DNA from: Candidatus Enterousia sp. | GTDB taxonomy: Bacteria > Pseudomonadota > Alphaproteobacteria > Rs-D84 | Assembly (NCBI GenBank): GCA_045649345.1 | Contig: JAZRPS010000007.1 | Location: forward strand, 1-54,842 | Reading direction: 5' to 3' | Length of the DNA stretch: 54,842 bases | Shown here: in pieces, positions 580-24,543 of the stretch | Layout: each line of letters starts with the position of its first letter | Numbering within the stretch: the first letter of the stretch is position 1 | Made by a program: the position numbers and the translations under genes | The notes under the pieces: model-generated | What the model was told of the DNA's origin: nothing | Database searches by the model: none | Seen by the model: the letters and a program-made list of their open reading frames with translations, nothing else

Positions 580-608
580 TTGTATTTTGTGTTTCAACGT
601 TGTATCCT
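580..608 (+). promoter_or_regulatory. Sigma70-like promoter for the ileS leader
   Basis: TTGTAT(580-585)-17 bp-TATCCT(603-608); the leader ATG is 7 nt downstream. Confidence 0.6.
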
Positions 609-615
609 GTGTGGC

Positions 616-648
616 ATGAAACAAGCAACAATAATTATTATTAAATAA
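616..648 (+). CDS. Putative ileS leader peptide MKQATIIIIK
   Basis: ATG AAA CAA GCA ACA ATA ATT ATT ATT AAA TAA: four consecutive Ile codons, ending about 70 nt upstream of the ileS start. Confidence 0.8.
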   Translation: MKQATIIIIK

Positions 649-651
649 AAG

Positions 652-697
652 GCAACTGCGCTTCTGCGGTGGCTGGGGCGCATGGGCGCCTTTTTTT
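652..697 (+). promoter_or_regulatory. ileS transcription attenuator (alternative hairpins plus U-tract)
   Basis: Terminator is GGCGC(677-681)-ATGG-GCGCC(686-690)-T7. A competing TGCGC(657-661):GCGCA(678-682) pairing would sequester its 5' arm. Confidence 0.75.
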
Positions 698-719
698 AAT
701 ATAAAAACAGGATAAAAAA

Positions 720-3700
720 ATGGCATATAAAAAAACAGATGCGCGTGCAGACTTTACCGCCTTGGAACAGGAAATGTTAACCAAGTGGGCAAACGAAGAT
801 ACTTTTCATAAATCATTGAAACAAACAAAACAGGGGCATCCTTTTTCGTTTTATGATGGGCCCCCATTTGCGAACGGTTTGCCACACTGGGGGCATTTGG
901 GTGTGACGGTGGTCAAAGACATGGTGTCGCGTTTCCAAACAATGAACGGACGGTTTGTGCGACGTGAACTGGGTTGGGATTGTCATGGGTTGCCTGCGGA
1001 AAATTCTGTTGAAAAAAAGCAAGGTCGTCGTGCCAAAGATATCGTTGCAAACGATGGTATTGCGGCATTCTGTGATATGTGCAGAACAGATGTTATGACA
1101 TATACAAACGAATGGAATCGTTTTATATCTCGTATGGGTCGTTGGGTTGATATTGGTGATAACTATGGTTACAGAACTATGGATAAAAATTATATGGAAT
1201 CAATGTTGTGGACGTTAAAGACATTGTATGACAAAGGATTGTTATATAAAGATTACAGTGTTAATCCATACGATTGGGTAAATGGTACAGTGGTATCTAA
1301 TTCCGAGGCATCACAAGACTATCGTGAAATTATTGATGATGCGTTAACTGTTTGGTTTGAACTGGAAAATGGTGACCGGGCGATTGCATGGACAACAACG
1401 CCATGGACACTGCCGGCAAATTCTGCATTGGCGGTAAATCCAAATATGACATATCTGCGTATGCAGGATAGTGATGGTGCCGTATACGTCATCGCAGAAA
1501 GTCGATTAAAGGCATATGAAAAACAATTTGCAAATGCAACAGAAATAGGTCGCATCAAGGGCTCTGATTTGGTTGGGTTGCATTACACACCATTGTTCCC
1601 ATATTATTCGAATGAATCTGAATTGTTATTTCAGGTAATCCCAGCAGATTATGTATCTGACGGCGATGGTACGGGTATCGTTCATATTGCGCCTGCCTAT
1701 GGTGCCGAAGACTTTTGGGCGGCGAAAAACATCGACCCAAAATTCCCAGTACTGTTAAACGTTGATACATATGGAAACTTTGATGAAACAGTAATCGATT
1801 TTGCTGGTGAAAATATTTTTGAAGCCACACCAAAGATAATAGATTGGTTAAAAACAAATGGTAAATTGGTTAAAAAAGAACAATATAAACACAGTTATCC
1901 ATTCGGTGACCGCAGTAAACAAAAACTGATACAACGCGCAACAGATTCATGGTATATCGATGTGCCGAAAATCAAAGATAAGCTGTTGGCAAATAACGCA
2001 AAAGTAAACTGGACATCTGCCGGTGAACGTTTCCGTAATTGGATTGAAAACGCACGCCCATGGTCAATTTCACGAAATCGTTTCTGGGGTATGCCATTGC
2101 CAATCTGGGAACGTAACGGTGAATACAAAGTTTTTGGTTCAATCGCAGAATTGGAAGAATTCTTTGGCGTGAAAATTGATGACCTGCATCGCCCAACACT
2201 GGATAAACTGACCAAGGACGGTTGGACACGCATAACAGATGTTCTGGATTGCTGGGTGGAAAGTGGTTCTATGCCATGGGCATCATTGCACTATCCATTT
2301 GAAAATGCAGAACGCTTTGCGGCGACTTTCCCGGCAGACTATATTATCGAAGGTCAAGACCAAACACGCGGTTGGTTCTATGCACTGATGGTGCTGGCAA
2401 CTGCCCTGTTTGATAAACCTGCGTTCAAGACAGTGTCGGTTAATGGTTTAATGGTTGATGAAAACAAAAAGAAATATTCAAAATCATTAAAAAACTATGT
2501 TGATCCTTCACAACAAATTGAACAATACGGTGCGGATGCGGTTCGTTTATTTATACTGGGGTCTAATTTTATGAAAACAGAACCTGTGCCAATTGATAAC
2601 GAAGGTAAAGTTTTCTTGGATTCCGGTAAAGTAATTCAAACACCATTATGGAATGCGTATCACTTCTTTACGTTGTATGCAAATGCAGGCAATGTCACTG
2701 CGCATGAAATCAGCAATCCAACGAACGTATTGGATAAATACATTTTGGCTGAATTAAATGTATTAACAGATGTGGTTAGAAATTCATTAAATGAATATAA
2801 ACCAGATGTTGCAATCAAAGAATTTGTTCGATTCTTGGACGTATTAAACAACTGGTATATTCGTCGTGGGCGTGCACGTTTCTGGGACGAAGAACAGGAT
2901 GCATTTGATACGCTGTATACGGTATTGGTGCGCTTTTGTCGCGTATTGGCACCATTCGCGCCATTTATCTCAGAATATATCTATACAAATTTAACAGGCG
3001 ATGAATCTGTGCACCTGACCACGTTCCCAGAATCAGAAAAAGTAGATGAAAAAATCGTTGATGACATGCGTCGTGTGCAATCAATTGTATCAACCGGCAA
3101 ACAGTTGCGCGAAGAATATAAATTGCGCAATCGTCTGCCATTGAATTCATTGACGGTCGCAGGCGCAAACATGCCCGAATACGCAGATATTATCAAAGAT
3201 GAACTGAACGTAAAATCAGTGAAATTCAATGAAACCTTTAACGACGTTGCAGATAGTTTTATATATCTGATTACACCAAAAATCGGCGCACGTTTGGGTG
3301 GCGCATTAAAGGAAATCATCCCATCGGTAAAGCGTGGCGATTATGAAATCGTGGGCGATAAATTAATTGCGTCTGGTCACGAATTAAATTCAGACGAATT
3401 TGAAAATCGTCTGACTGTAAAGCCGGGTGTGACGGGTGCGACCCTGCCTGATAATACGGCGGTTGTCGTACTGGATACAGATGTTAATTCAGACCTGATT
3501 GCCGAAGGTCTGGCGAACGATGCGTTGCGCTTTATCCAAGACACGCGCAAGGTGGCGGGGCTGGATGTGTCTGACCGTATTGTGCTGACATATTCGGCAG
3601 AACCTGCGTTGGCAATGGCGATTGAACAGCATAAACGTCGTATTATGCGCGATGCGTTGGTTGTTGAAATGGTTTGCGGTGACGGCGAATACACCAAGGA

Positions 3701-3743
3701 TATAGAAGGCTATGCATTAAGTATTTCTGTTAAAAAGGCATAA
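720..3743 (+). CDS. ileS: Isoleucyl-tRNA synthetase, type 2 (archaeal/eukaryote-like)
   Basis: FYDGPPFANGLPHWGH, GWDCHGLP, WTTTPWTLP, GTGIVH, WSISRNRFWG, EGQDQTRGWF and KYSKS motifs; long type-2 C-terminus without the type-1 zinc finger. Confidence 0.97.
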   Translation: MAYKKTDARADFTALEQEMLTKWANEDTFHKSLKQTKQGHPFSFYDGPPFANGLPHWGHLGVTVVKDMVSRFQTMNGRFVRRELGWDCHGLPAENSVEKKQGRRAKDIVANDGIAAFCDMCRTDVMTYTNEWNRFISRMGRWVDIGDNYGYRTMDKNYMESMLWTLKTLYDKGLLYKDYSVNPYDWVNGTVVSNSEASQDYREIIDDALTVWFELENGDRAIAWTTTPWTLPANSALAVNPNMTYLRMQDSDGAVYVIAESRLKAYEKQFANATEIGRIKGSDLVGLHYTPLFPYYSNESELLFQVIPADYVSDGDGTGIVHIAPAYGAEDFWAAKNIDPKFPVLLNVDTYGNFDETVIDFAGENIFEATPKIIDWLKTNGKLVKKEQYKHSYPFGDRSKQKLIQRATDSWYIDVPKIKDKLLANNAKVNWTSAGERFRNWIENARPWSISRNRFWGMPLPIWERNGEYKVFGSIAELEEFFGVKIDDLHRPTLDKLTKDGWTRITDVLDCWVESGSMPWASLHYPFENAERFAATFPADYIIEGQDQTRGWFYALMVLATALFDKPAFKTVSVNGLMVDENKKKYSKSLKNYVDPSQQIEQYGADAVRLFILGSNFMKTEPVPIDNEGKVFLDSGKVIQTPLWNAYHFFTLYANAGNVTAHEISNPTNVLDKYILAELNVLTDVVRNSLNEYKPDVAIKEFVRFLDVLNNWYIRRGRARFWDEEQDAFDTLYTVLVRFCRVLAPFAPFISEYIYTNLTGDESVHLTTFPESEKVDEKIVDDMRRVQSIVSTGKQLREEYKLRNRLPLNSLTVAGANMPEYADIIKDELNVKSVKFNETFNDVADSFIYLITPKIGARLGGALKEIIPSVKRGDYEIVGDKLIASGHELNSDEFENRLTVKPGVTGATLPDNTAVVVLDTDVNSDLIAEGLANDALRFIQDTRKVAGLDVSDRIVLTYSAEPALAMAIEQHKRRIMRDALVVEMVCGDGEYTKDIEGYALSISVKKA

Positions 3744-3753
3744 GGAGTAAGTT

Positions 3754-4023
3754 ATGGCAAAATATTATTGTGAAAAATATTTTTACCCAGAAAAATATAA
3801 CACATATAAATGCGAGTATAAATGCGAGCAAAACGAACAAAAGGTATGTTCGCGTGAATGCAATGAATCTAATTACTGTCCGCGCAAATTGCGTTTGGAT
3901 AAAGAACAGTTTGCAATGCTGGACAGTTTGCGCGTTGTAAAGAAACAAAATCTAAAAATCATGGAACAAAACAAAAAGATTATAGAAGAGTTGACATTAC
4001 AACGATTACAGAAACAAGAATAA
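3754..4023 (+). CDS. Small Cys/Tyr/Lys-rich hypothetical protein with a coiled-coil C-terminus
   Basis: SD aaggag upstream; it fills the gap between ileS and nth, and its stop overlaps the nth start (TAATG). Confidence 0.75.
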   Translation: MAKYYCEKYFYPEKYNTYKCEYKCEQNEQKVCSRECNESNYCPRKLRLDKEQFAMLDSLRVVKKQNLKIMEQNKKIIEELTLQRLQKQE

Positions 4024-4670
4024 TGACGCCGGCACAATATTTTGAAATGGTTCCGCCGACCGTTGATATGACGATACGGTCGGAACTGTTTCATACAAAC
4101 GAATTTAACTTTGCGGTGGCGGTGATTCTATCCGCCCAGGCAACAGATAAAAAAGTGAACGAGGTGACATCTGCCCTATTTTCTGTTGCACCCACGCCTG
4201 AAAAAATGTTGGCATTGGGATTGGACGGATTAAAAGAACATATCCGGGTCATTTCTTTCTTTAATAACAAGGCGAAAAATATTATCGCATTGTCGGAACG
4301 ATTACATGCCGAAAATATGACCGATAAATTCCCGACCAAATATCATAATCGCGATGAATTGATGAAATTGCCGGGCATCGGACAAAAGACTGCAAATGTT
4401 GTGTGCAATGTCCTGTGGGGTGCGCCAAATATCGGCGTGGATACGCATGTTTTCCGCAATGCACACAGATACGGTTGGGTCGATGACGCGGACAATACAC
4501 CCGAAAAAGTTGAATTAAAACTGTTGAAAAAAATTCCAAAAAAGTATCACGCAATTGTAAATCATGTAATGGTTTTACACGGTCGGTATGTGTGTACTGC
4601 ACTGCGACCAAAGTGTGATAAATGTCCTATTTCAAATTATTGTCCGTATAATAATAAATCTTTGCATTAA
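4023..4670 (+). CDS. nth: Endonuclease III
   Basis: ILSAQATD, HhH motif LPGIGQKTAN, VDTHVFR, and 4Fe-4S motif C-x6-C-x2-C-x5-C. Confidence 0.95.
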   Translation: MTPAQYFEMVPPTVDMTIRSELFHTNEFNFAVAVILSAQATDKKVNEVTSALFSVAPTPEKMLALGLDGLKEHIRVISFFNNKAKNIIALSERLHAENMTDKFPTKYHNRDELMKLPGIGQKTANVVCNVLWGAPNIGVDTHVFRNAHRYGWVDDADNTPEKVELKLLKKIPKKYHAIVNHVMVLHGRYVCTALRPKCDKCPISNYCPYNNKSLH

Positions 4671-23004: not shown

Positions 23005-24543
23005 ATGTCTTTTGTATCTATGCCTCGTCAAGATTTACTGTTGGCCATTGATTCTTTGGCCCAGGAAAAGCAGATTGACCGTGAAATCGTTATTGAATCA
23101 CTAGAAGCGGCGATTGCTAAAATCGCAAAACACAAATATGGCGAAGAATTTAATATTACTGCCAATATCGACCGCAAGAATGGCGCGATTTATGTAAAAC
23201 GCTTGTTTGATGTTATTGAATCACCTGAATCTGTTGGCGAAGAATACGATGCAAATACAATGTTAACTGTCGCCCAGGCAAAGAAGTATGCCAAAAACCC
23301 GGTCGTTGGTGACGTGGTCGAAGATGCGCTGCCAGAACCAGAATTTGGTCGTATGGCATTCCAAACTGCGAAACAAATCATGACTGCACGTGTACGTGAC
23401 GCTGAAAAGGGTCGTCAGTACGAAGACTTTAAGGATAATATCGGCGATATCGTCAGTGGTGTTGTTAAACGTATTGAATTTGGTAATGTTTTTGTTGACA
23501 TTAATGGCAAGGCCGAAGGTTATATCAAGGGTACAGAATTAATCCCTGGCGAACGCTTGACGGTTGGCGATCGTGTTCGTGCATTGATTATGGACGTTGC
23601 GCGTTCAAATACTGGTCCCCAGATTTTCTTGACACGTACGCATCCGATGTTCATGGAAAAATTATTCGTTCAAGAAGTTCCTGAAATTTACGAAGGTCTG
23701 ATTAAAATCAAATCTGTTGCACGTGCGCCGGGTTCACATGCGAAAATCGCTGTTGAAACATCTGACCCATCAATTGATGCGGTTGGTATGACTGTTGGTA
23801 TCAAGGGTACACGTATTCAGCCGGTTATCAATGAATGTCATGGCGAAAAAATTGACGTTATCTTGTATTCCGAAGACCCTGCTGTATTTATTGTTAACGC
23901 AATGCAGCCTGCCAAGGTCGCAAAAATCATCGTTGACGAAGATACACGCAGCGCAGCCGTCGTTGTAAACGAAGATCAGCAGTCTTTGGCAATCGGACGT
24001 CGTGGTCAGAATGTACGTTTGGCATCACAGTTGACAGGTTGGAACATTGATGTTATGAACGAAACCGAAGAACAAGAACGTCGCGCCAAAGAATTTAAAG
24101 AAAAGACAGAATTGTTTATCGGCGGTTTGGACGTTGATGAAATGATTGCGCAATTGCTGATAACCGAAGGTTTCCGTACAATCGAAGAAATCGCATTTGT
24201 TGATATTTCTGAACTGGAAAGCATCGAAGGCTTTAATGCTGAATTGGCATCAGAATTGCAGAAACGTGCAAAAGATTATTTGAATAAAGTCGAACAAGAC
24301 TATCTGGACAATGGTCACAAGTTGGGCATGTCTGATGACTTGTTAACATTTGACTTTATTAAACGTCCAACAATCATGAAATTGGGCGAAGCAGGAATCA
24401 AATCGCTGGAAGATTTGGCAGATTTATCAACAGATGAATTGGTTGAAATCTTGGGCGAAGACACAATGAGTAATCGTTTGGCAGGTCGTGTAATTATGAA
24501 AGCACGCGAAGTCGCATACGATATAAAACAAGACGAAGAGTAA
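23005..24543 (+). CDS. nusA: Transcription termination/antitermination factor NusA
   Basis: FGR...QTAKQ, S1 and KH domains (SLAIGRRGQNVRLASQLTGW.ID), two C-terminal HhH repeats. Confidence 0.97.
   Translation: MSFVSMPRQDLLLAIDSLAQEKQIDREIVIESLEAAIAKIAKHKYGEEFNITANIDRKNGAIYVKRLFDVIESPESVGEEYDANTMLTVAQAKKYAKNPVVGDVVEDALPEPEFGRMAFQTAKQIMTARVRDAEKGRQYEDFKDNIGDIVSGVVKRIEFGNVFVDINGKAEGYIKGTELIPGERLTVGDRVRALIMDVARSNTGPQIFLTRTHPMFMEKLFVQEVPEIYEGLIKIKSVARAPGSHAKIAVETSDPSIDAVGMTVGIKGTRIQPVINECHGEKIDVILYSEDPAVFIVNAMQPAKVAKIIVDEDTRSAAVVVNEDQQSLAIGRRGQNVRLASQLTGWNIDVMNETEEQERRAKEFKEKTELFIGGLDVDEMIAQLLITEGFRTIEEIAFVDISELESIEGFNAELASELQKRAKDYLNKVEQDYLDNGHKLGMSDDLLTFDFIKRPTIMKLGEAGIKSLEDLADLSTDELVEILGEDTMSNRLAGRVIMKAREVAYDIKQDEE

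Follow-up and report, generated by a model that had tools for sequence, protein, structure and literature searches.

Contig JAZRPS010000007.1 of the Candidatus Enterousia sp. assembly GCA_045649345.1, whose full 54,842 nt are called the window here, carries a short element between der and the isoleucine-tRNA ligase gene ileS. In this element an unannotated open reading frame (ORF) of ten codons, four of them consecutive isoleucine codons, is followed by two RNA helices that compete for one segment, the second helix having the form of an intrinsic terminator. We consider it likely, with a probability of about 0.8, that the element works as a ribosome-mediated (leader-peptide) transcription attenuator, adjusting ileS expression to the supply of charged tRNA-Ile. 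The case is comparative: the element recurs before ileS through most of its bacterial family, its ORF varies in the manner of coding sequence, both helices show compensatory changes, and its spacings are fixed.

Candidatus Enterousia belongs to the Alphaproteobacteria (NCBI), and its lineage, made up of gut bacteria, is uncultured. PMC12306168 assigns it to the order Rs-D84 and describes genomes smaller than 1 Mb, with no amino-acid biosynthesis. The source genome (G000) is a draft of 25 contigs and 0.91 Mb.

The element in the window

The element is compact, about 85 nt from +1 to the terminator, and its parts are arranged as follows.

3-524, + strand: 3' end of the der (EngA) gene (NCBIfam TIGR03594)
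580-608, + strand: promoter-like site, -35 TTGTAT (580-585), 17-nt spacer, -10 TATCCT (603-608), read from the sequence
616-648, + strand: leader ORF, ten codons plus stop (TAA, 646-648), MKQATIIIIK, read from the sequence
631-642, + strand: proposed sensor, Ile codons ATA ATT ATT ATT (codons 6-9)
655-670, + strand: possible first hairpin, P1, ACUGC/GCGGU, with base GGC (651-653)/GCU (672-674), its 5' strand in common with the antiterminator
656-664, + strand: 5' strand of the putative antiterminator, CUGCGCUUC, whose partner in the minimum free energy (MFE) fold is 675-684
675-684, + strand: shared segment, the 3' strand of the antiterminator, of which 675-681 doubles as the terminator 5' arm
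686-697, + strand: terminator 3' arm (686-692), overlapping a run of seven T at 691-697 (terminator scan)
709-712, + strand: Shine-Dalgarno-like AGGA of ileS, 7 nt ahead of its ATG and unpaired in the fold
720-3743, + strand: ileS, type-2 (MupA/MupB-like) isoleucine-tRNA ligase of 1007 aa, the putatively regulated gene

The leader bases 616-648 read ATG AAA CAA GCA ACA ATA ATT ATT ATT AAA TAA. A first-pass annotation, made from the window sequence alone, had placed here a ten-residue ORF with four isoleucine codons, a TTGTAT-17-TATCCT promoter 7 nt before the ATG (a gap of 609-615) with a probably leaderless start, and a G+C hairpin with a seven-T terminator. Reading the sequence confirms the ORF, the promoter-like site and the hairpin with its T-run, and a terminator scan lists the hairpin as well; the leaderless start remains probable.

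No Shine-Dalgarno-like motif precedes the leader ATG in the window sequence. The site at 580-608 is not called by a simple promoter scan (8/12, under threshold), which returns TTTCCA-16-TATACT at 537-564 on the + strand, and a terminator-like hairpin lies on the - strand at 529-544, just past der. Neither this second promoter nor this hairpin is kept in the closest relative (L002), which has a different upstream gene. A terminator scan of 400-900 found nothing on the + strand between der and the leader, so transcripts from der may run on into the leader.

The ileS product scores 771 bits against NCBIfam TIGR00392 (cut-off 621) and about 600 bits against the MupA and MupB models, under their cut-offs, the latter scores marking it as an isoleucine-tRNA ligase (IleRS) of the eukaryote-like type 2; it also matches in part NF040702, which models an IleRS with a fused N-acetyltransferase domain. 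Lineage and scores agree with the alphaproteobacterial host and type-2 ileS named in the first-pass annotation. Because the enzyme is of the MupA/MupB-like type, mupirocin is a poor inducer for this system in its native host; in a foreign host the drug would act on that host's own IleRS.

Conservation and linkage to ileS

All 24 sampled genomes of the genus carry ileS at 70-93% identity, and every one has, 67-81 nt ahead of the ileS ATG, an ORF of 9-11 codons that ends in 3-5 Ile codons followed by a basic residue and the stop. The upstream regions of relatives had been expected to hold an Ile-rich ORF and covarying stems, and they do: the ORF is present in 24/24 genomes and compensatory changes are found in both helices. 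What lies upstream of the leader varies among these genomes (der, tRNA-Thr, or unrelated genes on either strand); since the element is kept though the upstream genes differ, it is tied to ileS.

A covariance model built from the 24 genus leaders (R1) matches 139 of 151 family genomes, including 125 of the 133 of high quality, and 14 of 18 genera. It finds one match per genome, the single exception being a second match at a contig end. Ten of the 12 R1-negative genomes were inspected by eye, which added five that bear a leader: one cut by a contig end (G156) and four in which it has diverged (G047 MTTIIIF, G049 MSIREIIIIKI, G060 MTIQTAIIIG and G051 MINKTIIIIEN), each of the four with its own hairpins and T-tracts. 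The element is thus present in some 144 of 151 family genomes by model and inspection together. Neither leader nor terminator was found before ileS in G044, G061 and G068 (genus g14) or in G052 (g22), where a promoter stands directly before the gene (loci L257, L263, L260 and L258); G074 (g14, L073) keeps the element, and on present sampling the four look like cases of secondary loss. In G043 the start of ileS lies off the contig.

Beyond the family, R1 matched none of 29 genomes from five other families of the order under stricter filters, and by eye no convincing Ile leader was seen before ileS in six of these 29 (L025-L030). A pattern scan of a public genome collection found the leader in 8 of 120 loci among the matches listed, most of which were chance matches from G+C-rich genomes.

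In 31 of the 34 family loci fetched, ileS is the first ORF past the element. The exceptions have a GNAT-type ORF first (L071 and L074) or a P-loop-like ORF first (L081). The GNAT ORF, of 178-190 aa, lies between leader and ileS, and two copies were confirmed with PF00583:

L095, 6788-7324, - strand: GNAT acetyltransferase ORF (PF00583)
L111, 70-642: GNAT acetyltransferase ORF (PF00583)

In the genome of L071, of which L095 is a longer locus, ileS follows right after the GNAT ORF, and L111 has the same layout, which suggests that the inserted ORF would fall under the same attenuator.

These data bear on the simplest alternative, that the segment simply terminates or insulates the upstream gene and is accompanied by a chance A+T-rich ORF. 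It draws some support from the presence of der upstream, on the same strand and with no + strand terminator of its own before the leader, and from the frequency of (ATH)4 runs, of which the 0.91-Mb genome holds 87 twelve-mers on both strands. Such runs are not rare, so the window alone proves nothing; conservation in relatives does. However, the element travels with ileS and not with der, a promoter lies between the upstream gene and the leader, each genome has one copy, and the ORF varies in a coding pattern, and we give this explanation almost no weight.

Variation in the leader ORF

Statistics on the leader refer to 77 unique leaders and those on codon-position variation to 85 aligned family leaders. 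The start codon is ATG in 75 of the unique leaders and GTG in 2, and the stop is TAA in 75 and TAG in 2. Length is ten residues in 68/77, within a range of 8-11, and insertions and deletions are of whole codons. The Ile run has four codons in 65 leaders, three in 10 and five in 2, and the residue after it is K, R, E, G, A or none.

In the alignment of 85 leaders, variation reaches every position of codons 2-5. Within Ile codons 2-4, by contrast, third positions hold 57 of the 62 non-consensus letters, and these third positions are T, C or A and never G. A G there would give Met, and an RNA motif that is not decoded would have no reason to avoid it. Judged by these alignments, the pattern of variation in the leader ORF is that of a coding sequence.

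The same pattern also speaks against an element that acts as RNA only, whether as an operator for IleRS or another protein or as a tRNA-binding leader, with the ORF incidental. Two features hint at a constraint on the RNA: members of the genus hardly differ in the Ile run, synonymous sites included, and ATC is under-used, making up 15 of the 300 Ile codons found in runs but 21% of those in long ORFs. Yet at the level of the family variation follows the genetic code, in its 57 of 62 third-position changes and its avoidance of G, and start, stop and frame are kept across insertions and deletions. A permissive scan of 400-900 with Rfam 15 (E up to 10) returned eight weak matches, all far under the gathering scores, and among them no T-box (RF00230) and no amino-acid leader family (Thr, Leu, His, Trp or others); the segment is also too short for a T-box. 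We judge such an RNA-only element quite improbable.

Still less probable, in our view, is that the ten-residue peptide is itself functional, as a small hydrophobic protein merely co-transcribed with ileS. The conserved ORF length and C-terminal half would suit such a protein, but the residues at positions 2-5 and the one behind the run are free to vary, the conserved part consists of the cognate amino acid of the downstream synthetase, and a terminator sits between ORF and ileS.

As to the idea that ATA, through tRNA-Ile2, is the sensing codon, ATA is the first Ile codon in 70/77 leaders and makes up 32% of the codons in the run, against 26% genome-wide. ARAGORN called 45 tRNAs in the source genome, three of them with a CAU anticodon, and found no tRNA-Ile(GAU) in this draft assembly; that gene probably lies in an rRNA operon that the assembly is missing.

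Antiterminator and terminator helices

The terminator hairpin 675-681/686-692 has seven pairs, five of them G-C, a 4-nt loop and the seven-T run directly behind it, with an energy of -10.3 kcal/mol; it is among the two sites found by the terminator scan of 400-900, where shuffled sequences lead one to expect 0.4. The MFE fold of 610-719 reaches -29.7 kcal/mol (z = -3.28), and only one of 200 shuffles is as stable.

That MFE fold contains the other helix. The first-pass annotation had proposed that the terminator 5' arm can pair instead with TGCGC at 657-661, whose complement GCGCA stands at 679-683. The folds bear out this alternative helix, but as an antiterminator it has 9-11 pairs and not five: the MFE fold extends it to 656-664 with 675-684, and the RNAalifold consensus of the genus alignment is this same antiterminator, with 11 pairs. 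Across 85 family leaders 93.6% of its cells are paired, both sides have changed in 8 of the 11 pairs, none of 500 column shuffles reaches any of five measures, and pairing falls from 93.6% to 27-67% once the partner is slid by 1-3 columns.

The terminator helix, which is not encoded in model R1, is paired in 90.9% of cells across the 85 leaders, with both sides changed in four of its seven pairs, and a regular-expression search finds a G+C-rich hairpin with a directly adjoining T-run (at least four T) in 86 of 93 loci. Changes at all three partner positions together are rare (L024 and L069 are examples), and the diverged leader of G049 has the same layout with different helix sequences. In these comparisons antiterminator and terminator are mutually exclusive, and each shows compensatory changes of its own.

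In genus g15 (L062, L063, L064, L067 and L068) the T-run is replaced by TTTATTATTA, a weak U-tract, with the leader and both helices kept. Termination in this genus may be less efficient or factor-dependent.

A further hairpin, P1, appears together with the terminator in the MFE fold of 18 of the 24 genus leaders. Covariation does not support it as a conserved hairpin, 74% of its cells being paired and shuffles matching the observed values.

Promoter position

Promoter position was compared in 61 leaders, all without a tRNA gene close upstream. In 52 of these the top-scoring -10-like hexamer stops 7-8 nt short of the ATG (7 nt in 36, 8 nt in 16); because the search was limited to 4-11 nt before the ATG, the peak is meaningful but the test was not blind. 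A -35-like hexamer lies 16-18 nt upstream of the -10 in these leaders, and many -10 boxes in other genera match TATAAT perfectly.

From this position we infer that transcription starts at or adjoining the A of the leader ATG. A -10 box 7-8 nt before the ATG fits a leaderless start, which is probably how the leader is translated. Caulobacter has many leaderless mRNAs (375), which it translates efficiently, and 171 are reported in Sinorhizobium (PMC4117421).

Proposed mechanism

We propose the following order of events. Transcription would begin with the A of the leader ATG or a base beside it, and a 70S ribosome would initiate on the 5'-terminal AUG. When Ile-tRNA-Ile is plentiful, this ribosome would run through to the UAA, where its leading edge would cover or unwind the first bases of 656-664. 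With the antiterminator blocked in this way, the terminator at 675-692 would form, and RNA polymerase would stop at the T-tract, about 25 nt before ileS. When Ile-tRNA-Ile is scarce, whether isoleucine is short or IleRS activity is low, the ribosome would instead stall on the Ile codons, too far upstream to touch 656-664. The antiterminator 656-664/675-684 could then form as soon as the terminator 5' arm is made, and would hold that arm while the polymerase passes, so that ileS is transcribed. The outcome would be negative feedback on IleRS activity in an organism unable to make isoleucine.

Ribosome reach and folding

The geometry of this scheme was modelled in the 77 unique leaders by masking the RNA to 12 nt past the first base of the codon in the ribosomal A site. 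With the terminator 3' arm still unmade, the 5' arm is sequestered (P ≥ 0.8) in 70 leaders without a ribosome, in 68 with the ribosome at the first Ile codon and in 72 with it at the last; placing the stop codon in the A site (edge at +12) leaves 42 sequestered, and moving the edge to +15 leaves 3. In all 24 genus leaders sequestration begins to fall once the edge is +11 to +13 from the first base of the stop codon, and the first antiterminator base that holds a base of the terminator arm lies 9-11 nt after the stop codon in 70/77. On this model, the layout fits one in which a stalled ribosome spares the antiterminator and a terminating ribosome invades it, though only kinetically.

The first-pass annotation had supposed that a ribosome at the stop codon masks 657-661. 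The spacing is indeed fixed and the geometry fits, but the antiterminator is only just reached. Likewise, the predictions that its attenuator switch makes at the level of sequence have held, but thermodynamics alone does not suffice and kinetic trapping is needed.

Several observations weigh against the attenuator, and the first group concerns this folding. At equilibrium, with the full RNA made, the terminator is favoured in most relatives whatever the position of the ribosome: it reaches P ≥ 0.8 in 54 of 77 leaders without a ribosome, in 59 and 56 with one at the first and last Ile codon, in 65 with one at the stop codon, and in 74 with the edge at +15. In the window itself its equilibrium probability is 0.21-0.26 for edges to +3, 0.71 at +6, 0.12 at +9 and 0.94 at +12. 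Of the antiterminator stretch that holds the arm, a ribosome at the stop codon touches no more than the first 1-3 bases, and at the +12 edge 42/77 arms are still mostly paired. When the upstream sequence is shuffled, the mean probability that the G-rich arm is paired is still 0.72, against 0.98 for the native sequence, and only 40/77 leaders beat 95 of 100 shuffles.

A thermodynamic switch was rejected as a sufficient explanation, since equilibrium favours the terminator. With the terminator as the ground state in most relatives, only a kinetic switch would do, and trapping of the antiterminator is assumed. The classical trp attenuation switch is likewise kinetic. Classical attenuators also need a pause hairpin to time ribosome and polymerase, and the candidate for that role, P1, is without covariation support.

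The second group concerns the start of the leader. A tRNA 3' end lies at most 70 nt upstream in 15 of 77 leaders. ARAGORN called tRNA-Thr(CGT) in all seven loci checked (L009, L011, L013, L015, L017, L091 and L259), and in L011, L013, L017 and L091 it ends only 10-13 nt before the leader ATG, so close that initiation there cannot use a primary leaderless transcript. A promoter-like site lies between tRNA and leader in 3 of the 15 tRNA-preceded leaders; judging by this arrangement, the other transcripts must be released by 3' processing of a tRNA co-transcript. Some tRNA-preceded leaders have AGGA 6-8 nt before the ATG. Finally, the 85-leader alignment (A4) was made by aligning to R1. The relatives are not independent and A4 is fitted to the antiterminator, so that the covariation counts are inflated.

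The equilibrium result leaves room for another explanation, in which the translated leader does sense isoleucine but its output is something other than transcription termination, such as RNA stability, processing, translation of ileS or a short RNA product. A terminator state favoured at equilibrium wherever the ribosome stands would agree with it, as would the broken T-run TTTATTATTA of one genus (L062-L064, L067 and L068), which makes a weak intrinsic terminator. Against it, the G+C-rich hairpin with its run of 5-8 T is kept in 86/93 loci, the terminator 3' arm co-varies with the 5' arm, and the Shine-Dalgarno motif of ileS lies at least 12 nt past the T-tract and is unpaired in the fold. 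We regard a non-termination output as unlikely, and continue with transcription attenuation as the preferred reading.

Other leaders and wider reading

A limited scan of the source genome for a short ORF with at least three identical residues, a terminator within 75 nt and a long ORF within 120 nt returned the ileS leader as the only case before a synthetase gene. Elsewhere, on the - strand of contig C17 at about 23865-24009 (counted along the reverse strand), an ORF MTIIIRRWQRLFLIKMIN and a terminator-like hairpin stand before an ORF that starts MKKIALILSIIFGAIILDQ. By eye the latter product resembles a membrane protein of the signal-peptidase-II type, and the arrangement is probably due to chance.

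Downstream of ileS the window continues with two further ORFs:

3754-4023: 89-aa ORF between ileS and nth, with no NCBIfam match
4023-4670: endonuclease III gene nth, whose start is overlapped by the stop of the 89-aa ORF

In a survey of the class, 74 of 121 genomes had an IleRS match at E ≤ 1e-70, and 40 ileS upstream regions were surveyed, namely all 11 with strong type-2-like matches and 29 of the 61 with weaker ones. In one of them, L220 (G221), some 110 bases immediately before a type-2 ileS are N. Some upstream ORF with at least three Ile in five residues occurs in 11 of the 40, and three of these look leader-like by eye (L221, L217 and L248). In G259 (L221) the ORF MKYLKINSVIIIKI is followed by a G+C hairpin and U7. 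The upstream ORF of G238 (L217) is MSDIRSISIIISIIIP, and that of G212 (L248), a G+C-rich genome with a type-1-like IleRS, is MSFTRPIIRIINPAS. L217 shares with L216 (G240) a CCCYTAGGGG palindrome within which the stop codon of the upstream ORF lies. Searches for relatives returned no closer kin of G259 or G238. The leaders of G259, G238 and G212 are further candidates, unrelated in sequence to judge by their appearance.

These candidates invite a wider reading, which we offer tentatively and consider doubtful as a whole: that the element is a 'molecular ruler' attenuator without a pause hairpin, that it is the only amino-acid riboregulator of its lineage, and that Ile leaders have arisen several times in the Alphaproteobacteria. 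Were this so, the pacing of a 70S-initiated ribosome relative to RNA polymerase would come from the ten-codon length combined with the 9-11 nt gap between stop codon and antiterminator, with transcription and translation beginning on the same nucleotide. An obligately dependent lineage, its genomes smaller than 1 Mb, would moreover have retained this element as its sole riboregulator that senses an amino acid. The Rs-D84 family, the leaders of G259, G238 and G212 and an ileS leader coding sequence of Caulobacter (below) would be candidates for separate origins, and leader-peptide control would be the alphaproteobacterial counterpart of the Gram-positive ileS T-box.

Even the narrower reading has consequences of its own. 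A lineage stripped of amino-acid biosynthesis would still monitor the charging of tRNA-Ile. Since Rfam has no entry for the element and the ORF lacks annotation, the element could seed an RNA family and improve the annotation of metagenome-assembled genomes from the gut. Its probable leaderless start and its compactness could make it a convenient minimal system for the study of ribosome-polymerase coupling in attenuation.

Comparison with known systems

The nearest parallel is pheST with its leader pheM in Escherichia coli, in which a synthetase operon is likewise preceded by a short ORF rich in cognate codons, an intrinsic terminator and an antiterminator. The pheM leader is led by a Shine-Dalgarno motif and is longer than ten codons. 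The present element, by contrast, concerns Ile and a type-2 IleRS, not Phe and a class II enzyme; it is probably leaderless, has only ten codons and places the antiterminator strand directly after the stop codon; and the two have no sequence relationship. The likeness to the trp, his, leu, thr and ilvGMEDA/ilvBN leaders, in the Yanofsky model, is that the position of a ribosome picks antiterminator or terminator. Those leaders, however, serve biosynthetic operons and have a defined 1:2 pause hairpin, whereas here the target is a synthetase, P1 is unsupported and the host has no isoleucine biosynthesis.

Among synthetase genes, the available part of PMC1262725 treats pheST as a gamma-proteobacterial attenuator and predicts leader-peptide attenuators for leuS and trpS of Streptomyces. 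The latter resemble our case in that an aminoacyl-tRNA synthetase gene, comparative genomics and a leader ORF with antiterminator and terminator are all involved; they differ in phylum, amino acids and sequences, and actinobacterial ileS has T-boxes (PMC1262725). For RNA control of ileS the same text describes T-boxes, found in Firmicutes and also in Actinobacteria, where they act on translation. The ileS T-boxes share with the present element the gene and the signal, the charging of tRNA-Ile, and in Firmicutes the output is also a choice between terminator and antiterminator. But in a T-box uncharged tRNA binds a leader of some 200 nt or more and translation plays no part, whereas this element spans about 85 nt.

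The first-pass annotation had considered such control unfamiliar for an alphaproteobacterial type-2 ileS. No description of an Ile-codon attenuator of ileS was found in the literature searched, but a ribosome-profiling study of Caulobacter crescentus already names an 'ileS leader CDS', CCNA_03934, along with a trpS leader coding sequence (available part of PMC4117421), so that the idea is not wholly unprecedented in Alphaproteobacteria. In that part of the paper CCNA_03934 is named only as a negative control in a figure legend and is not described, and it is otherwise unmentioned in the literature searched. Compared by name and position alone, it is like our leader a small translated coding sequence upstream of ileS in an alphaproteobacterium in which leaderless mRNAs are common, and the present element supplies a concrete hypothesis for it. 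A different parallel comes from mycobacteria, where leaderless polycysteine short ORFs are reported as cysteine-responsive attenuators (available part of bioRxiv 10.1101/834739); these too are leaderless sensors rich in a single amino acid that act on downstream genes, but in another phylum, with another amino acid and with targets that are not aminoacyl-tRNA synthetases.

Set among these systems, the ileS of Candidatus Enterousia and its family would join, with strong comparative support, the short list of synthetase genes under leader-peptide control. The proposed mechanism is that of classical attenuation, and the element is a well-conserved addition to a known class of regulation, not a new kind of system.

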